Counted from the stretch's first letter, positions 2,617 through 18,056 are shown. The stretch: 24,273 nt of DNA from Chitinophagales bacterium (GCA_016787295.1 JAEUUX010000137.1:1-24273), one strand, 5' to 3'. Notes: generated from the letters alone by a model not told the origin. Made by a program: numbers and translations.

Positions 2617-3126
2617 TTATGACTCTAAAAGGCGTTTTAACTGGCGCCTCGCTAAAAAAATACGACTTTTTACTGTACCAATGGGCAAATCCAAATCATC
2701 GGCGATTTCTTGGTATTTAAACCCATCTTTGTGCATCAAAAAAGGAATGCGAAACTCTTCTGCCAAATTGTTTATCGCATTTTGAATACTTTCAATGCCC
2801 AAATTACTCTCTCCCAAATTATAGGCAACGTCAGTAGCATGATTCAAATAATAGGCATTAACTGTTGCGTCTAAAATAGTATTGTGTTTTACTGAGCGTC
2901 TATAGTTGTTGATAAAGGTATTTTTCATAATAGCAAGTAACCATGCCTTAAGGTTAGTACCATCAGAAAATTTTTCTTGATTACCCAAGGCTCGATAAAT
3001 CGTTTCTTGTACCAAATCTTTAGCATCAATTGGGTTTTTGGTTAGTGCAAGTGCATACGGTTTTAAACTGTTTGCTAATTCCACAATGATTTGTGGATTG
3101 AAATCATTAATAATGGCTTTGCCCAT
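2617..3126 (-). CDS. ECF (sigma-24 family) RNA polymerase sigma factor, paralog 1
   Basis: Region-2 motif DLVQETIYRALGN...FINNYRR and region-4 motif LPIGTVKSRIFLARRQLKRLL. 169 aa. Confidence 0.9.
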   Translation of the reverse strand: MGKAIINDFNPQIIVELANSLKPYALALTKNPIDAKDLVQETIYRALGNQEKFSDGTNLKAWLLAIMKNTFINNYRRSVKHNTILDATVNAYYLNHATDVAYNLGESNLGIESIQNAINNLAEEFRIPFLMHKDGFKYQEIADDLDLPIGTVKSRIFLARRQLKRLLES

Positions 3127-3475: not shown

Positions 3476-3985
3476 TTAGGTTTGTAAAAAGCGTTGCAGT
3501 TCGCGACGAGCCAAGAAAATGCGGCTTTTTACCGTACCAATGGGCAATGCCAAATCGTCGGCAATTTCTTGATATTTGAAACCGTCATAGTGCATTAAAA
3601 ATGGCACACGAAAATCATCAGACAAATTATCTATTGCCGCCTGAATGTTTTCCATTCCTAAGTTGCTCTCACCTGCATTTTTGGCAGTTTCCGAAGAGTT
3701 ATTTAGATAATAAGATGTTGCTGTTTCATCAAGAATAGTATTGCGTTTTATGGTGCGACGATAATTATTGATAAAAATGTTTTTCATAATCGTAAACAGC
3801 CATGCCTTGAGATTAGTGCCGTCAGAAAATTTTTCTTTGTTGCCTAATGCACGATAAATCGTTTCTTGCACCAAATCTTCGGCATCAGTCACATCTTTGG
3901 TTAGCATGACTGCATAAGGTTTCATTGTTGTGGTTAGTTCCACAATAACTTGTGAGTTATATTCAGTTATAATAGCTTGTCCCAT
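3476..3985 (-). CDS. ECF sigma factor, paralog 2 (about 70% identical to paralog 1, same length)
   Basis: Same region-2 and region-4 motifs (LPIGTVKSRIFLARRELQRFL). 169 aa. Confidence 0.9.
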   Translation of the reverse strand: MGQAIITEYNSQVIVELTTTMKPYAVMLTKDVTDAEDLVQETIYRALGNKEKFSDGTNLKAWLFTIMKNIFINNYRRTIKRNTILDETATSYYLNNSSETAKNAGESNLGMENIQAAIDNLSDDFRVPFLMHYDGFKYQEIADDLALPIGTVKSRIFLARRELQRFLQT

Positions 3986-4100: not shown

Positions 4101-4280
4101 TTTTTGTGGAACTTTTTTTAAAAAAAGTTAAACCTTTTTGGTTTATTTATCTCAACATAGCTTTATATGGTGTAATTATGACAAAAATAACACTTTTGGA
4201 AGACTTTTACAAGTTTATTTTGTTAATAATGTTTAATTTTACATGAACACATAATACACAAAAAATTGAGTTGACTATAC

Positions 4281-4322
4281 AAAAAAAACACGTGCTTAAC
4301 TCATATTGAGACAAGCACATGT
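4281..4322 (-). terminator. Rho-independent terminator of the arginase-fold gene
   Basis: Minus strand: ACATGTGCTT ... AAGCACGTGT hairpin followed by TTTTTTTT. Confidence 0.55.
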
Positions 4323-4372
4323 TGTTTTGTAATTGTAGTTGGGGTGAGATGATGTTCGTTAGAAACTATTTT

Positions 4373-5533
4373 TTATTGTGTGGCGCGCCAATAGGCTTTG
4401 AGCCAACGGTCGGGAATTTCGTTGCGGCAGGCAATTTCGTAGTCGCGATAGGAGCATGGCACTAAGATATAGTTGGGTTTTCGTTTGCCACTCAAAGGCA
4501 CTTTGAGCCACCATCGGTCGCTTTTGCGGCTTTTGAGAAACACCAACTCGTGGTCTTCGTCTTTCATGCTCACGATGTAGGGAATATAGCTGCGCTCGTC
4601 TAAATCTGGAAAATCGTGTTTGCGTTCATAAAAACCCTCGACAAAATACCAAATCATTTGGGCAATGCTTTGGGCTGTATATCCGTTCAAGTCCAACAAA
4701 GGGTTGTATTCATAAAAACCCATAGAACGAATATGGTCACTCAAACCTGCATAGCGCGTCATTTGACAGGCTTCTTCGGCACCGAATCCGTGCGAAGAAG
4801 TGTGGGCAACAGCAGGAGCATCAGCCGCACGCAAGCAAGATAGATTGATAGCAAACATATTGGCATCGCGCAAAATCGGCTCTAAATCGGACATGTATTT
4901 TCTGATTTCGCCCAGGCTATAGCAGTCAAAATTTAGGTTTTCGAGTGTTTCTAAGATGTAGGGGTCAACCAAAGAACGCAAATAACCTATTTGAGCAAAA
5001 TGGCTAAGACTTTGTTTGTGGGTGATGATTTGGTACAGAAACGACCTGTTTTCTAAGGAATAATCGTTGGCATGGTTAAACAGCGCAATTTTTTCGTCGG
5101 CAAAAACAAAGTGTGTTTCGGGTTCGGTGGTGGTGTGTGCCAAAAATTGTCCATATGTCAAATCGCATGTGCCTCCGAGAATGATGGGGACAATTTCTTG
5201 TTCCATCAACACCTTCAATACGCTTTGCAAGGCAAAATAGGTGTCTTGTGGTGTTTCACCTGCTACAATATTGCCCAAATCGCAAATCTGTACGCCGTCG
5301 GTCCAGAAATAAAGTGGATAAAGATGTTTGCGGATAGCGTCGGGCGAGAGTTGGCAACCACCTTCCTCAGAACGGTCTTCACACACGCCTACAATGGCTA
5401 AACGCGTGCTTGTTAGGTCGGGAAAAGCGTTTTGGGTGTGAAGCATAAGTCGGCTTCCCCACTGATTGATGTTGAAATCGATGGGCGGCGAACACAGTTT
5501 ATCCGACAAAGGGCTTAGATAGTTTTTTAACAT
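4373..5533 (-). CDS. Arginase/formiminoglutamase-fold protein, divergent (canonical metal-binding motifs not conserved)
   Basis: Matches the ureohydrolase family: IVPIILGGTCDLTYG resembles the GGDHS loop, FAINLSCLRAADAP resembles SxDxDxxDP. The His/Asp ligands appear substituted. Family call is inference from memory of motifs. Confidence 0.45.
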   Translation of the reverse strand: MLKNYLSPLSDKLCSPPIDFNINQWGSRLMLHTQNAFPDLTSTRLAIVGVCEDRSEEGGCQLSPDAIRKHLYPLYFWTDGVQICDLGNIVAGETPQDTYFALQSVLKVLMEQEIVPIILGGTCDLTYGQFLAHTTTEPETHFVFADEKIALFNHANDYSLENRSFLYQIITHKQSLSHFAQIGYLRSLVDPYILETLENLNFDCYSLGEIRKYMSDLEPILRDANMFAINLSCLRAADAPAVAHTSSHGFGAEEACQMTRYAGLSDHIRSMGFYEYNPLLDLNGYTAQSIAQMIWYFVEGFYERKHDFPDLDERSYIPYIVSMKDEDHELVFLKSRKSDRWWLKVPLSGKRKPNYILVPCSYRDYEIACRNEIPDRWLKAYWRATQ

Positions 5534-5565
5534 ACTATTGTTTGCATTGAAAAAAGCGCGGAGGT

Positions 5566-6090
5566 TTAAAAACCGTGTTTTTTGAGTTCTTTGTTCATCA
5601 ATTTCATTTGTTCGGTTACTTGTTGCGGCGTATTTTCGGCTTTTAGTGCTTTGTCTAAATACATACGGCTACCGCGCAAATCGCGCTTCATGGCGCGGAT
5701 ATTGGCTAATTGGAAATACAAGGCACCTTCTTCTTCTTTGCGAACGCCAATGTCTAAGGCTTTTTTAAACATGCCTTCGGCGGCGGAGCTATTGTTGCGC
5801 TGAATGTCTATCATGCCGCGTGTGAGATAGTAGTAGGCTTTTTGAAATCTGCCTAAACGGTCGGGATAACGAGTCTCCGCAAGAACTTTTTCAGTCGCAT
5901 CTAAGTCGCCATTTTGCATGACTCGCATGGCGGCAAAAACGGTTCCATTCCAAAAAAAATCGAACACCAATAAACCACCTACCAATAGAGCAATGATGCT
6001 ACCAATGATATAGTGTCCTTCGATGATAAAAGATAGCGCGATAATGGCAGCAATGACTGCTATGATGATTCGATAACGCAATGTTAACAT
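5566..6090 (-). CDS. Membrane protein with two N-terminal TM helices and a TPR-like C-terminal domain
   Basis: Hydrophobic N-terminus (IIIAVIAAIIALSFII, IIALLVGGLLVF). Helical repeat region (AEGMFKKALDIG...YLDKALKA). Confidence 0.5.
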   Translation of the reverse strand: MLTLRYRIIIAVIAAIIALSFIIEGHYIIGSIIALLVGGLLVFDFFWNGTVFAAMRVMQNGDLDATEKVLAETRYPDRLGRFQKAYYYLTRGMIDIQRNNSSAAEGMFKKALDIGVRKEEEGALYFQLANIRAMKRDLRGSRMYLDKALKAENTPQQVTEQMKLMNKELKKHGF

Positions 6091-6117
6091 AATAAAACTA
6101 AATAAAGTTGTGGGCTT

Positions 6118-6867
6118 TTATGAATTAAACGGGTCTTGGTTGTTAGTAGGGCGCGGAAGTGTGGGGTCTTTGACGGGTGGCGTTTCAATGACGGCTTGGT
6201 GTGGTGACAAACGATGTGAGTGTTTCATGGCTACAAAGGCATAGCGAATACCTATGGGCAACAATAGGAGTGAAAACAAAGCTAATATTTCACTGGCTTC
6301 TTGCATAATAAAAAAATCGTATAGCCCATGCAAAATGGTGGCGCTTAATAAACCCAATAAGAGGTAACGAAAGCGGTCGACGGGAGCAGCGTGTTTTGCC
6401 AAACCCACATAGTAACCCATGATAATGCCAAAAACAGCATGGGCAGGAATGGCAGTAAACATACGGACAATGCCAATCCCGATACCGCCTTGCAAGACAT
6501 ACAAAACGTTTTCTAATGCTGCAAATCCCATGCTCACCATCACACCATAGACAATACCATCAAATGGCTCATCAAATTCGGCTTTGGGATACATATAGTA
6601 GCGCAAAAACAAAAATTTGCCCGCCTCTTCGGTTAAGGCAACCACTATAAAAGCATAAAAAGCTACATTTAGCAAACCTCCTGTTTCGGGAATGCCCCAT
6701 TTTTCATTGGCTTCACCTGCCAGCAAAGGCAAAAAAGCACTAAACATGCCAAGCAAAAAAGAGATAAATAGGTTGATAAAAGGTTCTTTTTCGTACTTGT
6801 CGCGACTATAAATGTAGCAAACCACAGCCACAACAGGAGCTAAAGCCAATAGTAATAGTTGTACCAT
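6118..6867 (-). CDS. PrsW-family intramembrane metalloprotease (anti-sigma-factor site-1 protease family)
   Basis: Multi-pass membrane protein with EExxK (ALTEEAGKFLFLRYY), FxxxH (FTAIPAHAVFGI) and a C-terminal HGLYDF motif. Start moved to MVQLLLLALAPV. Confidence 0.7.
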   Translation of the reverse strand: MVQLLLLALAPVVAVVCYIYSRDKYEKEPFINLFISFLLGMFSAFLPLLAGEANEKWGIPETGGLLNVAFYAFIVVALTEEAGKFLFLRYYMYPKAEFDEPFDGIVYGVMVSMGFAALENVLYVLQGGIGIGIVRMFTAIPAHAVFGIIMGYYVGLAKHAAPVDRFRYLLLGLLSATILHGLYDFFIMQEASEILALFSLLLLPIGIRYAFVAMKHSHRLSPHQAVIETPPVKDPTLPRPTNNQDPFNS

Positions 6868-6961
6868 ATTGTATGGGAGTAAGGGTGATGTATGTTTATG
6901 CTTGTTTGGAAAAATTATAAGCCAAATAATAATAACCGCAACATGGCAAGCCAACTCTATC

Positions 6962-8449
6962 TTAGCGATTCATCAAATTCAGAAATTCTTCGTTAGATTT
7001 AGTGTCGCGCATTCGTTCCAAAAGCGTATTCATGGCTTCTTCGGCGGTCATGTCCGTGAGGTGGTTGCGCAATATCCAGATGCGTTTGAGGGCATCGCGA
7101 TCCAACAAAAGGTCTTCGCGGCGCGTGCCTGAAGCGGGAATATCTACAGCGGGGAAAATACGTTTGTTGGCTAATCGGCGGTCGAGCTGCAACTCCATAT
7201 TACCTGTACCTTTGAACTCTTCAAAAATCACTTCGTCCATGCGCGAGCCTGTGTCGATGAGGGCGGTTGCCAAAATGGTGAGTGAGCCACCGTTTTCGAT
7301 GTTGCGTGCCGAGCCGAAAAACTGTTTGGGTTTGTGGAGCGCATTTGCCTCAACGCCTCCCGATAGCACTTTGCCCGAGGCAGGCGCAACGGTATTGTGG
7401 GCGCGAGCAAGGCGGGTTATCGAGTCCAAAAGTATTACTACATCATGCCCACACTCCACCAAGCGACGCGCTTTTTGCAGAGCAATGGTCGATACTTTGA
7501 CATGGCGTTCGGCGGGTTCGTCGAAAGTAGAGGCAATGACTTCTGCCCGCACCGAGCGTTCCATGTCGGTCACTTCTTCGGGGCGTTCGTCGATGAGCAG
7601 TATTATAAGGTATACTTCGGGGTGATTTTGGGCGAGAGCGTTGGCAATTTCTTTGAGAAAAAAAGTTTTACCTGTTTTGGGTTGCGCCACAATTAGTCCA
7701 CGCTGTCCTTTGCCAATGGGAGCAAACAAATCGATAAGGCGAAGCGAATAGCTATTAGTATTTTGGCTAAGATTAAATTTCTGGTTTGGGAACAAAGGTG
7801 TTAGGTAATCAAACGGCACGCGGTCGCGAATTTCTTCGGGATTTCTGCCATTGATAGCCGACACTTTGAGCAAAGCAAAGTATTTTTCACCCTCTTTGGG
7901 CGGGCGAATCGCTCCACAAACCGTATCACCCGTTTTTAAGCCAAACAATTTGACTTGTGAAGGCGATACATATATATCGTCGGGCGAACTAAGGTAGTTG
8001 TAGTCAGCCGACCGCAAAAAACCATAGCCGTCGGTCATCATCTCCAGCACACCCTCTCCCTCAATGAGTCCGTCCAAATCGTAGTTAAAATTGTCGGTGA
8101 AGTCATCGGTGTCTATGTTTATTCGACCTATGTTGGTGTTTTTTTCTTCGTTGTCGGAAGGTATATTTGGGGGCAAAACTGTATTCGTTTCTTCGTTGCT
8201 ATATGGCGTGTTATCCATAGCACTGTCGGTCAAATTGGTTTTACCTTTTTTGGTCACTATGTGGCGTGTGCGTGCGGTTTTGGGTTTTTCGGTAGAAGTG
8301 CCATTGTTTTCGACACGATGTTGTTCGTTTAATATGTGATGAATTAGCTCGGCTTTAGAGAGTTTTTTATAGTCAGGAATGAACAAAGACTCGGCAATAG
8401 CTCTCAATTCGTTGTCTAACAAATCGTTGAGTTGTAAAATATCATACAT
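6962..8449 (-). CDS. rho: Transcription termination factor Rho with an N/S/T/D-rich N-terminal insertion
   Basis: Walker [19 protein letters not shown]-binding and ATPase regions. A low-complexity insert of about 80 aa ([13 protein letters not shown]...[17 protein letters not shown]) lies between the N-terminal helix bundle and the OB fold. Confidence 0.95.
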
Positions 8450-8779
8450 AAAGGAAAGGTGGAAATTTGGTAATAGATAGGAAAAAATTAAGGTGGGAAA
8501 ATGGTCATTTGACCACTACAAAGGGTGGGAAGCGGAAAAACGGTACAAAGGTAGCTTTTTTTTGCGAGATTATAACATCTATGGCTTAGAAAAATGTAAA
8601 AAAATAGTACTGACGGGCTTTGAACAGTTTATTGAAGCCATTTTGTTGCGACGAAAGGAGAGAAAAACAACAAAATTTGTCTATTTTTGCTTGGAAAATA
8701 GCCCAAAATAACTCGAATTGCCCTTTTGCTACACCAATTCACAATTTTTGCTTATCTTTGTGACCAACATTTTTCAGCC

Positions 8780-9580
8780 ATGCGTTTAGATGTATTTTTA
8801 GTGGAGCGACAATTGCTGCTTAGTCGCGAAAAAGCCCAATTAGCCATAGCCGCAGGATTGGTATTGGTGAATGACAAAGTAGCCCGAAAAACTGCCCAAC
8901 AGGTTAGCCCTACGGACGTGGTGCAGTTGCTGGTACCACCTTTGGCTTATGTGAGCAAAGGCGGCGACAAATTAGCGAAGGCTTTGCAGGTGTTTGCCTA
9001 CGATTGCCACAACAAAACAGTGTTGGATATTGGTGCGTCCACAGGCGGATTCACGGATTGCGTGCTGCAAGCAGGTGCGCAAAAGGTGTATGCGGTCGAT
9101 GTTGGGTCGGGTCAATTGGTGGCGAGTTTGCGGGAAAACCCCAAAGTGGTGGTGCTTGAAAATACGCACATCAAAGACCTAACTGTTGCCGATATTGACC
9201 ATGCCGCCATCGATTTGGTGGTGATTGACGTGTCTTTCATCAGTTTATCGCAAGTTTTGGGTTTGCTTTTGCCTTTTTGCCAAGCACATACGCACATTAT
9301 CAGCCTCATCAAACCGCAATTCGAAGCAGGACAAGCCAACATTCGCAGAGGCGGCATTGTGACCTCGCCCAATGTGCATATTTCGGTCATCAAAAACCTT
9401 CAACACGCTGCCGCCACACACCAGCTTTTTTTGCACCAACTTACTTTTGCGCCTATCCAAAGTATCCAAAAAAACATAGAATATCTCGCCCTATGGCAGT
9501 GGCAAATGCCGCCCGAAGCGGTGGATATTGCGGCTGTGGTGCAAGCGGCGCAAGTGGTGCAGAAGGGTTTGGGGAAGTAG
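8780..9580 (+). CDS. tlyA: TlyA-family rRNA 2'-O-methyltransferase (S4 domain plus FtsJ-like MTase)
   Basis: MRLDVFLVERQLLLSREKAQ (S4 domain). VLDIGASTGGFTDCVLQAGAQKVYAVDVG (SAM-binding motif). Confidence 0.85.
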   Translation: MRLDVFLVERQLLLSREKAQLAIAAGLVLVNDKVARKTAQQVSPTDVVQLLVPPLAYVSKGGDKLAKALQVFAYDCHNKTVLDIGASTGGFTDCVLQAGAQKVYAVDVGSGQLVASLRENPKVVVLENTHIKDLTVADIDHAAIDLVVIDVSFISLSQVLGLLLPFCQAHTHIISLIKPQFEAGQANIRRGGIVTSPNVHISVIKNLQHAAATHQLFLHQLTFAPIQSIQKNIEYLALWQWQMPPEAVDIAAVVQAAQVVQKGLGK

Positions 9581-9700
9581 GAAAAGTAGCATAAATTAGG
9601 AGTGTTTATAGGCAAGTTAAACGTCAGTTCATTCGACAAATTAAAGTAATTGATTATATTACGACAAAAATAAAAAAAATGAACGAAAAATGTTTTTTTT

Positions 9701-9770
9701 TACTGAAAAACTTGACATGTTTGGGGAAAATTTTGTATCTTTGCGGCGAAATTGTTGCTCTGCTTGTTGG
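9701..9770 (+). promoter_or_regulatory. Promoter and leader module C, copy 1 (-7 TATCTTTG at 9736-9743; leader ATTGTTGCTCTGCTTGTT)
   Basis: The -7 box matches the Bacteroidota consensus; -33 is TTGA at 20-nt spacing. The module is shared with 14801-14870 and 17190-17235. Confidence 0.55.
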
Positions 9771-9858
9771 AAAGAGGGTGATGATGTTCATTTTTTTCAA
9801 AAGGCGAACGAAGGTTCGGGTAATAAATAATTATCATCTATTTTTAAAATAAAACACA

Positions 9859-11634
9859 ATGGAAAACAAAATCATAGCAGGATACATTAACGAAGATTTC
9901 AAAAAAGACTTTGGAATTGAAGAAACCAAAGAGGACACCTTGTTTGAAATGTTTGCCAATTATTGTATCATTTCAAGAATACACCCCGAAGCATTTTCCA
10001 CTGATTTTGACAAAATTGAGGATATGAATATTGGGGGCGGTGAAGATACAGGCATTGACGGATTAGGGATTATTGTGAATGAACATTTGGTTTCAAGCAT
10101 AGAGGAAATAGATGACCTTAAAAACTTCCGTAGAAGATTAGACGTGCAATTTATATTTGTGCAAGCAAAAACTTCCCCTAAGTTTGAGGCTGAAAAAGTT
10201 GGTACTTTCATTTTTGGCGTAAAAGACTTTTTTAGAGAACAACCATCAATCAAGTTTAATGATAATATCAAAATTTTCAGAGAACTGAAAGACTATATTT
10301 ACAAAAATAGTATTGACATTGAAGTCAAGCCAACTTGTCAGATGTACTATGTAACGACAGGGAAATGGGTTGATGATAAAAATGTTTCAGGCAGAGCTAA
10401 CTCTGAAAAAGCCGAATTAGAAAGGCTTGGAATATTTAGCAGTGTTGATTTTATTCCAATTGACGCAGATACTTTGGGTAGCATTTACCGTGAGATTAAG
10501 AATAAAGTCAAAAAGGAAATAATTTTTGAAAAACGTGCTTCATTACCTTTTATTAAGGGAGTTAGAGAGGCTTATATTGGAGTATTACCAATTTCAGAAT
10601 ACATCAATCTAATAAAAGGTTCTGATAACAAAATTCAGAAAAATTTATTTTATGACAATGTACGAGATTTTTTAGGTACAAATTCCGTCAATAGTGAAAT
10701 TGCAAATACAATCAAAAATAAAGAAGAACAAGATAAGTTTGCAATTCTGAATAATGGTGTTACAATCGTTGCCAAGTCAATAAATCCAATAGGCGACAAA
10801 TTTACAATTAGCGACTTTCAAATAGTAAACGGGTGCCAAACAAGCCACGTATTATTTAATAACAGAGATTATTTAATTGAAAGTAAGGCATTTATTCCAA
10901 TTAAACTAATTGTTACAGATGATTACGAAGTGGCTAATCAAATTACGAAAGCAACCAACCGACAAACAGAAGTAAAAGTTGAGGCATTTGCTTCCTTAGA
11001 GCCTTATCATAGAAAATTAGAAGAGCATTACAATTCATACCCCAAAGCAACCCGCATTTATTACGCAAGACGCAGTAATCAATATGATAATGCTATTCCT
11101 GCAATTCCAAAGGAAAGAATTATTACACTTGCGGCACAAATTAATGCTTTTGTTTCTGTTTTCTTAAATGAACCTCATAGCACTCACAGGTATTATGGAG
11201 AACTTTTAAAGGCTTACGAAGATAAGTTGTTTCAAGCCGAACATAATCCTGATATGTATTATGTAAGTAGTTTTGCATTGCAGGTTGTTGAAAAGGTGTT
11301 TAAGAGTAAACCACCAAAAATTGACGCATTTTATCGTGCAAACAAATTTAAGCCTCATCTACTTGTAGTTTTGAGGATTATAACTTGTGGTTTTAAATAT
11401 CCACAATTTACAAGCAAGGAAATGGCAGCATATTGTGAGAAACTGCATACACTACTTTTGAATGAAACAGAAACTTTAAAAGCATTAGCAACAGCAACAA
11501 AAATTGTATCTAATGCTATAAACAACTACAAACAAAAGTATGGTGCGACAAATGTTCGTGAATTACACAGAATGCGCAACTTTACGTTTGAACTGATAGA
11601 GGAGGCGAAAAAATATCAACCAAAGAGCAAATAA
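9859..11634 (+). CDS. AIPR-family abortive-infection protein (591 aa), solitary
   Basis: Size, composition and N-terminal region are typical of AIPR/Abi-like phage-resistance proteins. Low-GC codon usage. Family call is from memory, not a search. Confidence 0.55.
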   Translation: MENKIIAGYINEDFKKDFGIEETKEDTLFEMFANYCIISRIHPEAFSTDFDKIEDMNIGGGEDTGIDGLGIIVNEHLVSSIEEIDDLKNFRRRLDVQFIFVQAKTSPKFEAEKVGTFIFGVKDFFREQPSIKFNDNIKIFRELKDYIYKNSIDIEVKPTCQMYYVTTGKWVDDKNVSGRANSEKAELERLGIFSSVDFIPIDADTLGSIYREIKNKVKKEIIFEKRASLPFIKGVREAYIGVLPISEYINLIKGSDNKIQKNLFYDNVRDFLGTNSVNSEIANTIKNKEEQDKFAILNNGVTIVAKSINPIGDKFTISDFQIVNGCQTSHVLFNNRDYLIESKAFIPIKLIVTDDYEVANQITKATNRQTEVKVEAFASLEPYHRKLEEHYNSYPKATRIYYARRSNQYDNAIPAIPKERIITLAAQINAFVSVFLNEPHSTHRYYGELLKAYEDKLFQAEHNPDMYYVSSFALQVVEKVFKSKPPKIDAFYRANKFKPHLLVVLRIITCGFKYPQFTSKEMAAYCEKLHTLLLNETETLKALATATKIVSNAINNYKQKYGATNVRELHRMRNFTFELIEEAKKYQPKSK

Positions 11635-11703
11635 AAAACGGTTACCAACATTATGTTTTCCGAAAAGACAGACTATAGGCTTTTGTGCTTTCCATAAACT
11701 TTA

Positions 11704-11755
11704 TGCGAAGGGCAAGGATGGTGTGTTAAATCCTGTCCTTCGCATGACTTTTCCG
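11704..11755 (+). terminator. Terminator-like hairpin downstream of the AIPR gene
   Basis: TGCGAAGG...CCTTCGCA stem followed by TGACTTTTCC. Confidence 0.45.
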
Positions 11756-12018
11756 CCGTTTCCTCCCTTTTCCATAACCACTTGATTGCCAGAAGTTTAT
11801 ATAAGTATATTTTTATAAATTTAGGAAATATTAAATTTATAGCTTATTGTTTATTGGGGTTTTTTGAAAAAATGAGAGGAATTGGTGTTTCAATTTAAAC
11901 AAACAAAAATAAATCGCCCAACAAAGTATATACACATCAAGATTACTACACCATTTATAGACCGAAATGGTCTCTACAATTAAGCAAACTTTTTTACAAA
12001 ATTTAAATTTTATTCTCA

Positions 12019-12191
12019 TGGCAAAGAAAATCACACCGCAACAAAATCAGTCCAATATGCAAAATGCCAACAAAGGCACGAAAGGGACAAACAAACAGTA
12101 CGACCAAAATCAAGGTAATAAAGGTAAACAACTCAATCCAACGCCAAACAATAGCAATACGGATAAAGGCGGAGGAAAGGAGCCGAATTGA
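12019..12191 (+). CDS. Small Q/N/K-rich hydrophilic protein (57 aa), questionable
   Basis: MAKKITPQQNQSNMQNANKGTKGTNK... Followed by a perfect 13-bp hairpin. It could equally be a non-coding AT-rich region. Confidence 0.25.
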
Positions 12192-12246
12192 CGACTAAAA
12201 AAGCAAAAACAAAGCATGGTTGTATCTGATGGAGAAAACTCAATCT

Positions 12247-12284
12247 GCAAACCCAACGTAGAGCGGCTACGTTGGGTTTGTTAC
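12247..12284 (+). terminator. Perfect 13-bp hairpin AAACCCAACGTAG-agcgg-CTACGTTGGGTTT
   Basis: Read directly. The trailing U-tract is weak (TTGTTACC). Confidence 0.5.
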
Positions 12285-12349
12285 CATTGTACGAAATAAA
12301 AACAAACACACCAAAACCCACACAAATTCCTCCAAAAACCAAAAATTCC

Positions 12350-12385
12350 ACGCCAAATTTTGCGAAAAATTGCAAGATTTGGCGT
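12350..12385 (+). repeat. Module A, copy 1: 14-bp hairpin ACGCCAAATTTTGC-loop-GCAAGATTTGGCGT (one G-U pair)
   Basis: Copy 2 at 14706-14741 is a perfect 14-bp stem. The single difference between copies is compatible with wobble pairing in RNA. Confidence 0.6.
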
Positions 12386-12468
12386 AACTTTGTCTCCCGA
12401 AACCAACATTTATGCCACCAGAAGTATTAACCATTGCCGAACTATATGTTAACAAAAAAAATAATTAA
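12385..12468 (+). promoter_or_regulatory. Module B, copy 1: -7-like TAACTTTG followed by a conserved 18-codon upstream ORF (MPPEVLTIAELYVNKKNN) overlapping the MNT start
   Basis: Nearly identical module at 13161-13240, which carries a 17-codon ORF MPPEVLTIAEIKAQYPD. The att/atc difference is synonymous. Confidence 0.45.
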
Positions 12469-12742
12469 ACAGCGAATCCAACAAAATAAGGACAAACTCG
12501 ACAGTTTGGGTATTGACCTTATTGGGCTTTTTGGCTCTTATGTAAGAGAAGAACAAAGAGCAGATAGCGATATTGACATTTTTATCTCCTTCAAAGGAGG
12601 ATACGAAACGTTTAATAACTTTATGGACTTATCCTATTTACTCGAAGAAATATTTAAAGGAGTAAAAGTGGAAATAATAACCCAAAACGGATTAAGCCCC
12701 TACATTGGACCCAAAATTTTAAAGGAGGTAGAATATGTCTAA
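12446..12742 (+). CDS. mntA: MNT-type nucleotidyltransferase (antitoxin of a HepT/MNT type VII TA pair)
   Basis: GLFGSYVREEQRADSDIDIFISF matches GSxxRGxxxxxSDxD. The ORF-track start is TTG at 12434; ATG at 12446 is preferred. Confidence 0.8.
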   Translation: MLTKKIIKQRIQQNKDKLDSLGIDLIGLFGSYVREEQRADSDIDIFISFKGGYETFNNFMDLSYLLEEIFKGVKVEIITQNGLSPYIGPKILKEVEYV

Positions 12743-13085
12743 ATTGCCACTCGATTATCTGCGCCATATTTTGGACGAATGCAACTATGTCGTTTCTGTT
12801 ATTAAGGAAGATACCGTAAAAAATGACTTGCTTGATAATGAAACATTAAAACGAGCCATTGTCAGAAGTTTAGAGATAATAGGCGAAGCCACAAAAAAAA
12901 TACCTGCCGATTTTAAAGTTAAATGGACAACAATATCATGGAGAAACATGGCAGGGATGAGAGATAAACTTATTCACGATTATATGGGGGTCAATTATTC
13001 CATTGTTTGGGACGTAGTCAAAAATATCATTCCTATTCTCAAAGAGCAAATAGAAGAAATAATTAAAGAAGAAAATGCTCGCTAA
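12735..13085 (+). CDS. hepT: HepT/DUF86 RNase toxin
   Basis: Rx4HxY motif RDKLIHDYMGV. 8-bp overlap with the upstream MNT gene is typical of this pair. Confidence 0.8.
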   Translation: MSKLPLDYLRHILDECNYVVSVIKEDTVKNDLLDNETLKRAIVRSLEIIGEATKKIPADFKVKWTTISWRNMAGMRDKLIHDYMGVNYSIVWDVVKNIIPILKEQIEEIIKEENAR

Positions 13086-13160
13086 CAAAATACAGAACAG
13101 AACAATAAGCCATTTAGTCGGTTTGTTACCCATGAATGTCATTTTTTCTTAAAAAAACTA

Positions 13161-13240
13161 AACTTTGTCTCCCAAAACCAACATTTATGCCACCAGAAGT
13201 ATTAACCATCGCCGAAATAAAAGCGCAATATCCCGACTAA
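13161..13240 (+). promoter_or_regulatory. Module B, copy 2, upstream of the fic gene, with its mini-ORF (13187-13240)
   Basis: AACTTTGTCTCCCAAAACCAACATTTATGCCACCAGAAGTATTAACCATCGCCGAA aligns with 12386-12441. Confidence 0.45.
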
Positions 13241-13297
13241 TGGGTGTTCTACCGAGCAAGAGCCGTTGTGTGTAATTTTTAAACCAGAAAAGAAAAA

Positions 13298-14662
13298 ATG
13301 ATAACTATTGACCAATCTCTACTGAGTCCTGACCTTATTCAAAGACTCGATAATCTACATTCTGAAATTACTAAATTTCGTCAAGAAGGCGAATTAGACC
13401 AACTTTCAAAAGAAAAATTGCGGGACTATTTTAGAACACAACATATTTTCCATAGCGCAGGGATTGAAGGCAATAGGCTGACCTTGCAAGAAACGATGCT
13501 GGTTTTGAAAGAAGGGGTTACCATCTCTGAAAAATCCATTCAAGACTCAATAGAAGTTAAAAATTTAGGTATTGCCTTTGATTTTTTTTATGAATTGGCA
13601 CAAGAAGGCACTCCTATTTCGGAAAATTACATCAAGCAGCTCCATCAATTGGTAGTCGGTAACGATCCCTATTTGAATGCAGGAAATTACAGAAATGTGG
13701 GTGTAGTTATCACAGGTTCAGAGCATACACCGCCCGAACCTTTTGAAGTACCTTTCAAGATGCAAGAACTAATGGATTGGTTGAACGAAAATTTTGACGA
13801 AGAAAACCCTATTGTTTTGGCAGCAGTAGCTCATCACGAAATGGCAAAAATTCATCCTTTTGCAGACGGAAATGGTAGAACAGCAAGGTTGCTTCTTAAC
13901 CTTATTCTGTTGAAAAAAGGCTATCCGATTTGTAGCATTAAACGAACCGAACGTCCAAGATATTATGAGGCGATGTCGGAGGCAGACAGCGGTAACTATC
14001 ATCAAATTATTGAAATGGTAGCAGAAAGCAGCGCTGAACTTTTTGCAGTGTATGTCCGAATAAGGGAAGAAACTAACAGAAAGACACAGTTTGCTAAAAA
14101 GTGGGGAAATAAAGACATAGAAAACAGGCTCAGAAAAGAGAAAGGACGATTTGAAATTTGGCAAAATAGAATGAATCAAATCAAGTTGGAATTTAGGCAG
14201 TTTGCCAATTTGTTAAGCGAGAATTTAGAAACATATAGTGCTACTTTCTACGAATATCCGCCACTAACTTTTGAAACGTTTCAAGAATTAGTGGAACAAG
14301 GTAGTGCTAACAATACTTTTTTCTTTTCCATTCGTTTCTACCAAAGAGAAACAAAGAAGATTGTACAGACATTCCTTTTCAGATTTTTTAGAGACCACAA
14401 TAAATTTGGTATTGACAACCCTATTGTGCCTTTGGAACTGAATTGTTTTAATCCCGAAACAAAAAATTTTCTTGTTATAGAACGTTTCACTTGGGCAGAC
14501 CGCATACAACTAAGAGCTTTTTACTTCAATCAGTCAAATGATTTGGTAATTAGAAAATATAATCGTTCAACAAAAACCATCAACGAAGAAATCAACCTAA
14601 ACCTATATAAAGTGGCTGAAACATTTTTTGATGATGTACTTGCTAACGTGCTTGGCGTGTAA
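13298..14662 (+). CDS. Fic/DOC-family protein (AMPylator) with an intrinsic inhibitory motif
   Basis: Fic motif HPFADGNGRTARLL. N-terminal SAGIEGN fits the (S/T)xxxE(G/N) auto-inhibitory helix. Confidence 0.85.
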   Translation: MITIDQSLLSPDLIQRLDNLHSEITKFRQEGELDQLSKEKLRDYFRTQHIFHSAGIEGNRLTLQETMLVLKEGVTISEKSIQDSIEVKNLGIAFDFFYELAQEGTPISENYIKQLHQLVVGNDPYLNAGNYRNVGVVITGSEHTPPEPFEVPFKMQELMDWLNENFDEENPIVLAAVAHHEMAKIHPFADGNGRTARLLLNLILLKKGYPICSIKRTERPRYYEAMSEADSGNYHQIIEMVAESSAELFAVYVRIREETNRKTQFAKKWGNKDIENRLRKEKGRFEIWQNRMNQIKLEFRQFANLLSENLETYSATFYEYPPLTFETFQELVEQGSANNTFFFSIRFYQRETKKIVQTFLFRFFRDHNKFGIDNPIVPLELNCFNPETKNFLVIERFTWADRIQLRAFYFNQSNDLVIRKYNRSTKTINEEINLNLYKVAETFFDDVLANVLGV

Positions 14663-14705
14663 AACAAAACTATGCTCAACACACACAAAAAAAACCAAAA
14701 ATTCC

Positions 14706-14741
14706 ACGCCAAATTTTGCAATATTTCGCAAAATTTGGCGT
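14706..14741 (+). repeat. Module A, copy 2: perfect 14-bp hairpin ACGCCAAATTTTGC-aatatttc-GCAAAATTTGGCGT
   Basis: Read directly. Confidence 0.6.
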
Positions 14742-14800
14742 AATTTCGTTTACGATGCTTTACAAATTATGGCAAAAATGCGCTAAGAGAAATGAATTTT

Positions 14801-14870
14801 TTTACTAGAAAGTTAGACTATTAAAAAAAGTTTGTATCTTTGCAATTGAATCATTGCTTTGCTTGTTACA
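14801..14870 (+). promoter_or_regulatory. Promoter and leader module C, copy 2 (-7 TATCTTTG at 14834-14841), ~290-nt leader to the next gene
   Basis: TTTACTaGAAAgTTaGAC...TTTGTATCTTTGC...ATTGCTTTGCTTGTT aligns with 9701-9770. Confidence 0.5.
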
Positions 14871-15131
14871 GGGTTCCTTATTTGATAGATTTTGAGACTT
14901 CTGAATAGTAGAATACCGAGAGGATTAGTAAATTGATGAACTTGAAAAAATGTAGAGAACAAAGTGTGGACATATATGGCGGCGAAAACCCAACCCGCGA
15001 AACCAACACATGGCGGTAGCTATGCCTACATAAATAATTGCATTTAAATAATATAATACATTACGATAATTACTTGTATAAATATAAACAATACTGCTTG
15101 TTATGTCTCATTCAAAAAAACAAATTAAACA

Positions 15132-15917
15132 ATGGGAAATAAATTCAAAATAGTTCTCTTTTTAATTTTTGGAATTTCGACAAATGCTTATTGCTGTTTA
15201 ATCGCAACACAAGAAAGAATAATTCCAATTGGTACTAGCGAAAATTGCTTAATTGGAATTGAAATAATTTCAAATAGATATGGAGGGGGCGATTACGGAG
15301 AAACCGCAGTTTGGAATTATAAATTCACTTTAAAAGGCTTCAACGAAGATTACTCAGAATTCCTAATTGAGGAATTGAGTTTCGAAAAGGTAATAAAGAA
15401 TAATAATTTAGAGAATATATTGAAAAATAAAATTAATATCGCTCTTCAAATTTGTAATGATTTAACAGATTTTGAAGTATTTGAGCCAAAAGAAATTACT
15501 TTTTGTGATTTTCAAAAGAATTGTTCTGTTCTCAAATTAATCGAATCCGCAGGGCAATTAAAATTCCGCACAATCAACGAAAAAAAAAATCATCAAATAC
15601 ACTATTTAAGTGAGAATTATACAGGAGAAATTGCTAAACAATACAAAGAATACTTTAAAGCCCATTTTGATTCAAGTGATATTATTGGAACAGATTTAAA
15701 AATTTCGTCAATTAGACAATACGAAAATAGTTCTTACAAATTATTGATTTTTCATTTAGGAACGGGACAGGAACCAGAGGAAGTAGAAACAGGTAAATTG
15801 CGAAAAAAAGAGTATAAATTTGACAGGGAATTTAAAACGATTGAAGATGTTATATTTATTGAACCAATTTTACATCATGGAGCTGGATTCGATTATTTTA
15901 AAATGGATAAAAAATAA
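15132..15917 (+). CDS. Secreted or lipoprotein of unknown function (261 aa)
   Basis: N-terminal signal peptide MGNKFKIVLFLIFGISTNAYC. No recognisable domain. Confidence 0.5.
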   Translation: MGNKFKIVLFLIFGISTNAYCCLIATQERIIPIGTSENCLIGIEIISNRYGGGDYGETAVWNYKFTLKGFNEDYSEFLIEELSFEKVIKNNNLENILKNKINIALQICNDLTDFEVFEPKEITFCDFQKNCSVLKLIESAGQLKFRTINEKKNHQIHYLSENYTGEIAKQYKEYFKAHFDSSDIIGTDLKISSIRQYENSSYKLLIFHLGTGQEPEEVETGKLRKKEYKFDREFKTIEDVIFIEPILHHGAGFDYFKMDKK

Positions 15918-16449
15918 AAAAGGGTTGCAACAGGGTATACGGCAATCAAAGGAGACTGTGCCTGCTCAACCCATTTTATTCAAAAAAACAATCTCAATTA
16001 GCTACTTTTCGCTGAACAAAGGTTTGTATATTTTGGTATTTAGCATAATGTTTTGGGGATTCGGATGGGTAGACTTTTTGTTCATTGCCAACCGATATGT
16101 CGTATTATTGAAACCATATTACAACAAAAATAGGTCAAAAATAACAGAATTTGACACTTTTATGCATTATTTTCGCGTATTTGAGATGTAAAATAGGATT
16201 TTGAACTAAGTATTTCAATTTGTTTTTTGCCAATATTTTTTAACGAAAGGTAAGGTGAGTGGAGAACGAAATTAAAATAAAAACAACTATTAACACAAGG
16301 TATTGCCAAAAGCGGAGTTGAATGGCTTGAGTAGACATGGTCATAGCTGTAAGCAAGTGGCGTACAACGTAGCGAGCAGACAACAATCAAGGAGACTGCG
16401 TATGCACAAGCCGTTTAGGGTATTTTAAAACAACAAAATATAACAAATA

Positions 16450-17019
16450 ATGAACACACTTTCATTTGACATATTGCCTATTAATGAATATCATGACTAT
16501 GAAGTACGAATTCTTATTGACAACAGCGACATTCTTGGGAATGACTATTTAGGAATAGACCCGCCTGAATTTTTCGAACAACATAATTTATTAACTGCTG
16601 GACGAATATTAATAGGTAGATGCTCTTGCGGTGTTGTAGGTTGCGATGACTATCCAGTTTACGTAAACGTTTTTAATGACAAAGTTATCTGGACAAATGA
16701 CGACGGACTCAATTTAGCATTTGATAAATCAGCATATGAAAAAACCATTTTACATGCCAAAATAGACCATACTTGGGAGAGCAAAGAAAGAAGAATTGAA
16801 AGACTAACTTCTGATGTCTTAAAAAACACCAAGACAATAGATGATTATAAGTTTGACTGGACTTCTGCAAGAATAAAAGAAAACATAATTATGGTAAGTT
16901 ACAGCAAAGACGGGCAACAAAAATTATTTGAATTTAACTGGGATGGGCAAACAGAGCAAAGTGCATTGAAAGAAGCTAATCATTTCTTGACACAACGACC
17001 AATACAAAACATCCTATAA
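16450..17019 (+). CDS. Cytoplasmic hypothetical protein (189 aa) with a CxCGxxGC cluster
   Basis: ORF with no TM segment. Motif RCSCGVVGCDDYP. No family recognised. Confidence 0.45.
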   Translation: MNTLSFDILPINEYHDYEVRILIDNSDILGNDYLGIDPPEFFEQHNLLTAGRILIGRCSCGVVGCDDYPVYVNVFNDKVIWTNDDGLNLAFDKSAYEKTILHAKIDHTWESKERRIERLTSDVLKNTKTIDDYKFDWTSARIKENIIMVSYSKDGQQKLFEFNWDGQTEQSALKEANHFLTQRPIQNIL

Positions 17020-17189
17020 CAAGTTTTGCGTCATTGAGCTAACATACACACGATTCGTAGGTATTATTGACCATTTATAGCTAACTTCCCTCCCTCCGAA
17101 GCCTCAAAAGCCTTCGAAAGGAGGGATTTTTATTTGACATGAATGCTTTTTCCAAAAAAATTGCCCCACAATTGCCAAAAAAATGAAAA

Positions 17190-17235
17190 ATCCGTACCTT
17201 TGCCCCCAAGTTTGTTGCTTTGCTTCTTTGAAAGC
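17190..17235 (+). promoter_or_regulatory. Promoter and leader module C, copy 3 (-7 TACCTTTG at 17195-17202; leader TTTGTTGCTTTGCTTCTTTG)
   Basis: The -7 box and a leader homologous to copies 1 and 2. Confidence 0.5.
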
Positions 17236-17294
17236 AGAGTGATGAGGGTAATTATATTTTTTCACAAATGGCGGGCTAAAGTGCGATTAAAAAA

Positions 17295-17936
17295 ATGAAA
17301 AAAAAGAAAATATTTTGGGTTCTTTCAATCTCAATAATTTTGACAATCATCACAACAATTTGGTTAGCAAATAGAAAAATTGATGAAATAGCCAAAGATT
17401 CTGTTTATAATGAAGTTTCAAAAATTCCATACAATAAGGTAGGGTTGTTATTGGGGACTTCCAAAACATTAAGCTCCGGCGAAGAAAATTTGTATTTTAT
17501 GAACCGTATTGTGGCTGTAAATGAATTATTCAAAGCCCATAAAATTTCTTACATCGTGATTAGTGGCGATAATAGCAAAAAAGAATACAATGAACCATTA
17601 GACATGAAAAACGAATTATTGAAAGTAGGCATTCCTGATAGTTCAATAATTTTGGATTATGCAGGATTTAGAACTTATGATTCGGTGATTCGAATAAATA
17701 AAATATTTGGTCAAGAAAAATTTACAATTATTTCGCAAGAATTTCATAATCGAAGAGCCATTTATATTTCAAATCGATTAGGATGCGAAGCCATAGGATT
17801 CAACGCAAAAGATGTCAATATGTACAAGGGATTTAGAACCAAATTAAGAGAAAATTTTGCTCGTGTAAAAGTATTCATTGATTTTTGGGTTAATGAAGAA
17901 CCGAAATTTTTGGGAGAAAAAATAGACATAAAATAA
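17295..17936 (+). CDS. SanA/YdcF (DUF218) family envelope protein
   Basis: N-terminal TM anchor. Matches a remembered SanA/DUF218 consensus (VISGDN, YNEP, DYAGFRTYDS, FH); family call is inference, no search run. Confidence 0.7.
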   Translation: MKKKKIFWVLSISIILTIITTIWLANRKIDEIAKDSVYNEVSKIPYNKVGLLLGTSKTLSSGEENLYFMNRIVAVNELFKAHKISYIVISGDNSKKEYNEPLDMKNELLKVGIPDSSIILDYAGFRTYDSVIRINKIFGQEKFTIISQEFHNRRAIYISNRLGCEAIGFNAKDVNMYKGFRTKLRENFARVKVFIDFWVNEEPKFLGEKIDIK

Positions 17937-17992
17937 ATAGGCGAAATTATATTGCGACCTATCTCTCCAAAAACCGAATTAGTACAAACACA

Positions 17993-18042
17993 CAAAAAGT
18001 TGTCACTTTCCATTAGAAAGGACAACTTTTTGTGAAAATAGC
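17993..18042. terminator. Bidirectional terminator between the sanA-like gene and the OMP gene
   Basis: AAAAAGTTGTCACTTTC-cattag-GAAAGGACAACTTTTTG. Confidence 0.55.
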
Positions 18043-18056
18043 GTGAATATATATTT

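Follow-up and report, generated by a model that had tools for sequence, protein, structure and literature searches.

Strain-variable defence hotspots between core genes have been described in E. coli, Vibrio and Pseudomonas. Bacterial messengers with stabilising elements at the 5' end are also well described and include the E. coli ompA 5' untranslated region (5' UTR), the B. subtilis aprE and ermC leaders and the STAB-SD of B. thuringiensis cryIIIA. The DNA analysed here is a 24,273-nucleotide (nt) stretch from a Chitinophagales bacterium (the window; all positions are whole-window coordinates). It contains a small defence island in which three transcription units, headed by an AIPR/AbiU gene, an unknown 261-amino-acid (aa) open reading frame (ORF) and a sanA-like gene, are each preceded by a related copy of promoter and leader DNA, referred to as module C. 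The locus resembles the described hotspots in its conserved left flank, its variable anti-phage or toxin-type content, its low GC and the presence of an insertion sequence (IS) element in one variant. The copies of module C are homologous, modular promoter/5' UTR copies at a strain-variable defence hotspot. It is moderately probable that they are three paralogous copies of a promoter/5' UTR platform which is resident at a hotspot for defence cassettes between tlyA and sanA.

The -7 boxes of the three copies, TATCTTTG at 9736-9743 (copy 1), TATCTTTG at 14834-14841 (copy 2) and TACCTTTG at 17195-17202 (copy 3), all fit the Bacteroidota sigma-A consensus TAnnTTTG, which occupies positions -12 to -5 in flavobacterial transcription start site maps (PMC9723704). 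The predicted +1 positions are 9748/9749, 14846-14848 and 17207/17208. The window has exactly three occurrences of the block TTGCTYTGCTTSTT (9755, 14854 and 17215), each on the + strand, 11-12 nt past a -7 box and inside the first ~20 predicted transcribed nt. When up to two mismatches are allowed the block has 6 matches compared with a shuffle mean of 1.48, and none of 100 shuffles reaches 6. A sequence-only reading had placed the -7 boxes at 9736, 14834 and 17195, each followed by a near-identical initial transcribed sequence, and had named the same downstream genes; all of this is borne out. So is the additional upstream similarity of ~40 bp that it saw between copies 1 and 2, which consists of 9685-9716 against 14787-14818 (75%) and 9727-9768 against 14826-14867 (79%). 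The -33 element of such promoters, TTTG/TTG, is expected ~19-21 nt before the -7 box; a -33-like element can be recognised by eye as the TTG at 9712-9714 in copy 1 and as ATTG with a spacer of ~20 nt in copy 3; copy 2 has only GTTA. The block is not simply an extended promoter consensus, the outcome that the sequence-only reading had named as refuting it: among the ~14 TAnnTTTG boxes upstream of window genes, 3 carry the block and the other ~11 do not, and one strain variant (L146) keeps the promoter without the leader. The terminator-like hairpin upstream of promoter Y (Table 1) indicates that sanA is a separate transcription unit.

As aligned, the similarity among the three copies is a mosaic of the form U-core-D in copy 1, U'-core in copy 2 and Y-core-D' in copy 3. 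The homology between copies 1 and 3 extends for ~82-87 nt, beginning near +1 and reaching the place of the sanA start codon, and D and D' are ~70% identical overall. Copy 2 has only 20 nt of this sequence, and the ~265 nt between 14867 and the ORF at 15132 are unrelated. These extents, together with a leader hairpin that contains the start of an upstream open reading frame (uORF), go beyond what the sequence-only reading had described. The leader of ~265-285 nt between copy 2 and the 261-aa ORF also contains a 28-codon ORF (MMNLKKCREQSVDIYGGENPTRETNTWR) at 14933-15019 (+). From the predicted +1 the leaders measure 87-110 nt, and the median 5' UTR in Bacteroidota is 24-32 nt (PMC9723704). Between copies 1 and 2, the transcribed 20 nt match at 16/20 positions (80%) and the untranscribed 22 nt just upstream match at 17/22 (77%). 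The transcribed part is therefore no better conserved than its flank, and common descent by duplication suffices to explain it without selection.

These results divide the claims made from the sequence alone. Its proposal that the three units share homologous promoter and leader DNA holds in the form of a mosaic, in which the copy 3 promoter is unrelated apart from the -7 box. The argument that conservation of the first 20 nt marks a post-transcriptional control site loses its basis, since there is no excess of conservation over the flank and copy 2 lacks the 3' arm of the hairpin. The suggested target of a small RNA (sRNA) or an RNA-binding protein also finds no counterpart, as no sRNA, protein site or Rfam family was found; the search against Rfam 15 gave 0 matches at gathering thresholds, and a permissive search gave only a weak match to wcaG (19.6 bits against a threshold of 42, E = 3.9). 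Overall, the sequence-only interpretation is supported in part: the shared DNA is real and is not a generic promoter, and positive support for a shared regulatory signal was not found.

Strain variants separate the two parts of the module. L146 (with L147-L152) matches window 4247-9748 at 99.3% identity. Its divergence begins exactly after TATCTTTGCGGCG, at ~+1, so that it keeps U and lacks D. Its sequence past +1 comprises another leader together with an AntA-domain gene and an ISL3 element. The AntA-domain gene and this ISL3-family IS, which has inverted ends GGTTCATCCATGATTTTGGCGA (6563 and 7811-7832), occupy L146 5461-7832. L163 is 98.9% identical to window 6520-9828 and keeps both U and D, followed by a different ORF. 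This ORF (L163 3343-3930) encodes an unknown protein of 196+ aa, runs off the contig and has no PADLOC match. L163 came to light when a spurious 57-aa ORF spanning copy 1 was compared with 1.84 billion proteins. Both variants retain U with 99% identity. U is thus a resident of the locus, as is D, a 5' UTR that can be separated from U; behind them, one species has at least three different cassettes. The left flank (rho, then tlyA) is conserved and the later gene content varies among strains that are ~99% identical, which makes the locus a strain-variable hotspot; the comparison of variant strains covers the left flank, and the sanA right flank was read in the window. The junctions fall at +1 (L146), +20 (copy 2), ~+80 (L163, and also the end of the homology between copies 1 and 3) and ~+98 (the start of the AIPR homology). 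This scatter argues against a single site-specific crossover, and a single att-like core was rejected on that ground.

The AIPR/AbiU cassette can be compared with relatives elsewhere. L127 has an AIPR that is 95% identical, in a different gene neighbourhood and without the leader, and L129 has a homologue that is 83% identical, also without the leader. From the span over which nucleotide identity to L127 is confined (Table 1), the cassette is one that was acquired as a unit. A leader that travelled with AIPR was considered and is ruled out by L127 and L129. Downstream of tlyA in the TlyA relatives at 85% and 81% identity there is no homologous promoter or leader, and the next gene in L155 is pheS. 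The relative at 85%, L153, has head-to-tail repeats of ~60 nt (…TACGAGGCTTCATACACGTGTTTTTGGGTGC…) downstream of tlyA at 7170-7352, which reach the contig end.

In the favoured reading, the sigma-A promoter and 5' UTR would serve as a resident expression platform with two separable parts, U up to +1 and the ~82-nt D. Behind it, the strains carry different genes: AIPR/AbiU in the window, an unknown gene in L163, and an AntA-domain gene with ISL3 in L146. The copies may have arisen by duplication or by homology-facilitated recombination while cassettes accumulated. Copy 2 would be the remnant of an older or foreign copy that was cut at +20; sanA keeps a full D' behind another promoter. Since copies of this kind are inherited by duplication, the likeness of their first transcribed bases need not be selected. 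Judged from the sequence comparisons, the best reading is that common descent explains the conservation of the leader; a shared regulatory signal is so far without support.

The hints of constraint are confined to hairpin 1, which begins 2-3 nt past the predicted +1 in both copy 1 and copy 3. The copy 1 hairpin has its loop at 9766-9771 and a bulged G9762, with a predicted energy of -11 kcal/mol (z = -1.46). The copy 3 hairpin has 15 bp and a predicted energy of -14.1 kcal/mol (z = -2.87), and folds better than 196 of 200 shuffles. In copy 2 the 5' arm is intact (14/14) and the 3' arm is gone, and the RNA is predicted to be unstructured (z = +1.64). Six of the 14-15 hairpin pairs are G·U, so the hairpin forms only in RNA of the + strand. 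All 14 of 14 pairs form in the three full leaders (copy 1, L163 and copy 3), with three pairs changed on one side and one changed on both. In the comparison of copies 1 and 3, identity reaches 81% in the hairpin and 60% in the remaining leader (p = 0.06). Copy 1 and L163 differ by 1 change in the 35 nt of the hairpin, and by 4 mismatches and 1 gap in the 43 aligned positions of the rest.

The 3' arm of the hairpin holds GUGAUGA, the start of the short uORF, and a Shine-Dalgarno (SD)-like box (GAAAGAGGGUGAU) is also buried there. This arm, at window 9770-9783 (GAAAGAGGGUGAU) and L163 3251-3264 (GAAAGGGGGUGAU), is an unusually strong complement of the 16S anti-SD tail. The duplex energies, calculated with a generic 16S tail, are -13.6 kcal/mol for copy 1, -19.6 for L163 and -9.2 for copy 3, and the 1st percentile of the 25-nt background in the window is -11.0. 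SD-led initiation is rare in Bacteroidota (PMC6847099). The constraint on the hairpin probably acts in cis. With lower confidence, the 5'-terminal stem would protect the mRNA end from decay, and base-pairing of the pyrimidine-rich 5' arm with the SD-like box and with the AUG of the uORF would limit ribosome loading ahead of the main ORF.

The uORFs of copies 1 and 3 differ at 6, 3 and 10 sites in codon positions 1, 2 and 3 (5, 2 and 9 when the terminal AAT/TGA codon is left out); synonymous changes account for five of the differences. In L163 a change from T7 to T8 cuts the uORF to 10 codons (MMFIFFQKAN). The T-run is T7 at window 9791-9797 and T8 at L163 3271-3278, and a mutable tract or an assembly error is possible. 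The truncation in L163 suggests that the peptide is probably not the selected feature, and a coding role for the uORF was set back as a candidate by this frameshift. The leaders have no terminator-like site that would provide a terminator/antiterminator alternative; the U-run begins 5-10 nt past the stem.

Several points weigh against the platform reading and the cis role of its hairpin. The +1 positions are predictions from the position of the box alone. An island-free allele (tlyA-U-D-sanA) was not found, so the order of events is inferred. It was sought through exact matches to the TlyA, AIPR, Fic, 261-aa, SanA and 46-aa ORF products, all of which lie in the same arrangement; the assembly breaks at those loci coincide with the internal repeats of the island and not with variants. 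The hairpin covariation is not significant with three sequences (163 of 500 shuffles reach it), and the contrast in conservation reaches only p = 0.06. If function resides in the hairpin, copy 2, which keeps the 5' arm without the 3' arm, would be a dead remnant; if it resides in the linear motif instead, the idea of a cis-acting hairpin is incomplete. The DNA searched comprises the window, contigs of this lineage and sanA loci, and further copies in the genome are possible.

The same observations can be read without any leader function. The copies may be a neutral relic of duplicated DNA: the hairpin and uORF would have arisen by chance in a sequence rich in U and G, and every gene would use whatever promoter happens to precede it. 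The equal identity of the leader (80%) and the untranscribed flank (77%) in copies 1 and 2 is what such a relic would show, and copy 2 has lost most of D and L146 all of D with their downstream genes intact. The frameshifted uORF in L163, the lack of significance in the hairpin covariation and the absence of anything conserved upstream of sanA at 80 orthologue loci of other Bacteroidota point the same way. The stem fits this explanation less well: 4/4 substitutions among the three leaders preserve pairing, both comparisons show the hairpin to be better conserved than the rest of D, and the copy 3 hairpin outfolds all but a few of its shuffles. The length of the leaders relative to the Bacteroidota median also speaks against it. 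A neutral relic is unlikely, although far from negligible. A second possibility is control through a leader peptide, in which translation of the uORF (MMFIFF.../MRVIIFF...) would couple or attenuate the downstream gene, either by the stop/start overlap at sanA or by stalling on a Phe-rich, +x+ (K-V-R) segment. When copies 1 and 3 are aligned, the uORF stays open in one and the same frame, its stop codons lie at or close to the downstream AUG, an SD-like box precedes its own AUG, and the differences are biased to codon position 3. This bias comes from ~16 differences and is only roughly p = 0.05-0.1. In L163 one extra T removes the K-V-R part, uORF1 extends beyond module D by its C-terminal third, no terminator/antiterminator alternative was detected in the leaders, and SD-led initiation is rarely used in this phylum according to the source cited above. 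Such control is decidedly unlikely.

A signal acting in trans would place the function in the 5' arm itself. The pyrimidine-rich UUGCUYUGCUUSUU at all three mRNA 5' ends could be bound by an sRNA or RNA-binding protein that co-regulates the island. This 14-nt block is identical within Y/S in 3/3 copies, even in copy 2 where all later sequence has been replaced and where the block is predicted to be single-stranded, and it is absent from the other promoters of the window. The block is base-paired in the hairpin of copies 1 and 3, and the window yielded neither a candidate regulator nor a complementary sRNA. The same locus drives other cassettes in L146 and L163, without and with the block respectively, and three linked paralogous copies do not demonstrate a regulon. 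Outside the locus the hairpin pattern (metagenome and viral) and the promoter-plus-block pattern (viral) gave only chance-like matches. We consider this signal quite unlikely. Lastly, the conserved core could be an att- or attC-type site at which a site-specific recombinase inserts cassettes, so that the copies mark cassette boundaries. The island is indeed flanked and partitioned by direct repeats, breaks in homology between strains and between copies fall within the module or at its edges, and the copies form the mosaic described above. A recombination site is nevertheless very improbable: the breakpoints are scattered (+1, +20, ~+80 and ~+98), identity among the copies is just 75-80%, the 20 window ORFs scanned lack any integrase or recombinase domain, and several hairpin pairs are G·U, which is impossible in DNA or in the opposite strand.

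The platform reading can be extended into a broader one. The hotspot may be an integrase-free, integron-like capture platform, in which U and the ~82-nt D would give any cassette transcription together with a common 5' hairpin and SD-sequestering control. The D copies at the left edge and before sanA would supply the homology by which cassettes are added, swapped or lost, and the 5' arm could be a shared handle for one island regulator. This extension is speculative and rather unlikely. If the platform reading is correct, the locus would be a clean, small example of how a defence island grows by joining promoter-less genes to a resident promoter/5' UTR. The copying of such a platform would leave look-alike leaders that can be mistaken for the signal of a regulon, and this calls for caution with motifs found in islands. 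The 5' hairpin that masks an SD-like box would be a candidate lineage-specific cis-element in a phylum with rare SD-led initiation, and it may be local.

Further copies of the leader were sought with R1, a covariance model for which copy 1, L163 and copy 3 supplied the sequences. In 85 kb from this lineage it detected no additional one. Around 80 sanA orthologues (GTDB, 49-69% aa identity, 603 kb), neither R1 nor nhmmer detected a homologous leader in the correct orientation ahead of the gene, and at the 36 loci scanned for uORFs none is conserved. An ancient sanA leader was rejected on these two results. The species itself is absent from the genome collection behind these loci, where the best SanA match is 69% identical. 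Three Paludibacteraceae metagenome-assembled genomes (L061, L065 and L071) have a conserved promoter-proximal sequence of their own before sanA (TTATCTTTGCGAATGGTTGTGTGGATGGTCACCAACC..., at ~3860-3928), which is unrelated to D. The hairpin pattern TTGCTNTGCTTN{8,11}AGNGTGATGA had 32 matches among metagenome contigs and 1 among viral contigs, all chance-like and none with a TAnnTTTG box. The scan of viral sequences with TTTGN{10,13}TTGCTYTGCTTSTT gave at least 120 chance-like matches, and none among the matches listed has the hairpin 3' arm. The metagenome and viral collections scanned do not include the window organism's own contigs. Searches with blastn against plasmids and phages found nothing relevant.

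Table 1. Coordinates of the module C copies, their leaders and uORFs, and the genes of the island and its flanks in the window
Feature	Position	Strand	Remarks
Promoter module U, copy 1	9685-9748	+	-33-like TTG, 21-nt spacer, -7 box TATCTTTG
Leader D, copy 1 (resident 5' UTR)	9749-~9830	+	hairpin 1 at 9751-9785
uORF1	9781-9852	+	23 codons (MMFIFFKRRTKVRVINNYHLFLK); AUG in hairpin 3' arm; stop 6 nt before AIPR AUG
Promoter module U', copy 2	14787-14846	+	~77% identical to U; repeat families D4 and D8
Truncated leader, copy 2	14847-14867	+	first ~20 nt of D only (hairpin 5' arm)
Terminator-like hairpin and T-run	17111-17133	+	ends the gene preceding sanA
Promoter Y, copy 3	17134-17207	+	only the -7 box TACCTTTG in common with U
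Leader D', copy 3 (complete sanA 5' UTR)	17208-17294	+	hairpin 1 at 17211-17246
uORF3	17242-17298	+	18 codons (MRVIIFFHKWRAKVRLKK); UGA overlaps sanA AUG at 17295 (AUGA)
rho	6962-8449	-	
tlyA-like methyltransferase gene	8726-9580		
AIPR/AbiU cassette	9846-11759	+	89.9% nt identity to L127, this span only
AIPR/AbiU ORF	9859-11634	+	PADLOC AbiU match 7e-135
MNT/HepT pair	12434-13085		MNT: PADLOC PDC-S09 match 2e-30; HepT domain found
Fic protein gene	13298-14662		SoFic-like; PADLOC SoFic/PDC-S04 match 3e-37
Unknown 261-aa ORF	15132-15917		
Second unknown ORF	16450-17019		
DUF218/SanA gene (sanA)	17295-17936		

The lineage is an uncultured member of the Bacteroidota which is known only from short metagenome contigs; samples with this species include SRR17326792, ERZ27258552 and SRR14932510/511. 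Its closest SanA homologue is 68% identical, and the identities of its TlyA homologues are 97%, 85% and 81%, followed by a straight drop to 49%. The GC content is 0.31-0.35 across 9600-19200 compared with 0.43-0.50 in the flanks. PADLOC and domain scans find AbiU, MNT/HepT and Fic at the hotspot, a content that places it among defence loci. A search for tRNA and tmRNA genes as possible integration targets found none.

The island also has other repeats. A 60-nt direct repeat (12334-12393 and 14690-14749, 87% identical) brackets the MNT-HepT-Fic segment. It consists of a 36-nt palindrome (ACGCCAAATTTTGC...GCAAAATTTGGCGT) followed by TAACTTTG/TAATTTCG, and was flagged as terminator-like by a scan; Logan assemblies break at the repeats at 12334 and 14690. 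A 59-nt direct repeat (12386-12444 and 13161-13219, 95% identical) contains a promoter box and the first MNT codons (MPPEVLTIAE). As this MNT promoter/start repeat recurs before the Fic gene, it is a second duplicated promoter/5' module in the island. Outside the island, the window has tandem paralogous extracytoplasmic function (ECF) sigma-factor genes, each of 169 aa, at 2617-3126 and 3476-3985 (-), and the relative L153 has at least one full ECF sigma-factor copy and part of a second gene at the matching position. A protein of 820 aa at 21349-23811 (-) has matches to Pfam MVP_shoulder (6e-31) and Vault_3; it is major-vault-protein-like, lies in a Bacteroidota-type genome and is also found in L001.

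The comparison with known systems shows both the likenesses and the limits of the locus. Unlike the described defence hotspots, the junctions here lie inside the resident promoter/5' UTR, so that incoming genes are placed under the resident promoter; the platform is also duplicated within the island, and no integrase or mobile-element backbone is seen. Like an integron (Pc + attI), the locus has one resident promoter ahead of exchangeable, mostly single-gene cassettes. This is a functional analogy and not family membership, as there is no IntI among the scanned ORFs, no attI or attC and no fixed crossover; by eye, the island palindromes at 12350 and 14706 do not fit the attC R''/R' consensus. 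The locus also differs from att-flanked islands, in that D and D' are ~70% identical (81% in the hairpin) and the scanned ORFs include no integrase. The leader resembles 5' stabilisers and STAB-SD in having a predicted hairpin 2-3 nt from the predicted 5' end and an SD-like GAAAGAGGGUGAU distant from the main start. It differs in that this SD-like box is paired in the hairpin, the host phylum is largely without SD-led initiation, and there is no sequence homology; the likeness to stabilisers and SD-sequestering leaders is one of architecture only. The short Phe/Ile-rich uORF with a structure-masked start, and with a stop that overlaps the downstream start in copy 3, recalls the erm/cat leaders, pheL and tnaC. 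In contrast to these, the uORF is not conserved within the species (L163), there is no attenuator terminator, and the downstream genes are unlinked to Phe or antibiotic sensing. The locus is a lineage-specific case of known kinds, with duplicated promoter/5' UTR modules at a defence hotspot.

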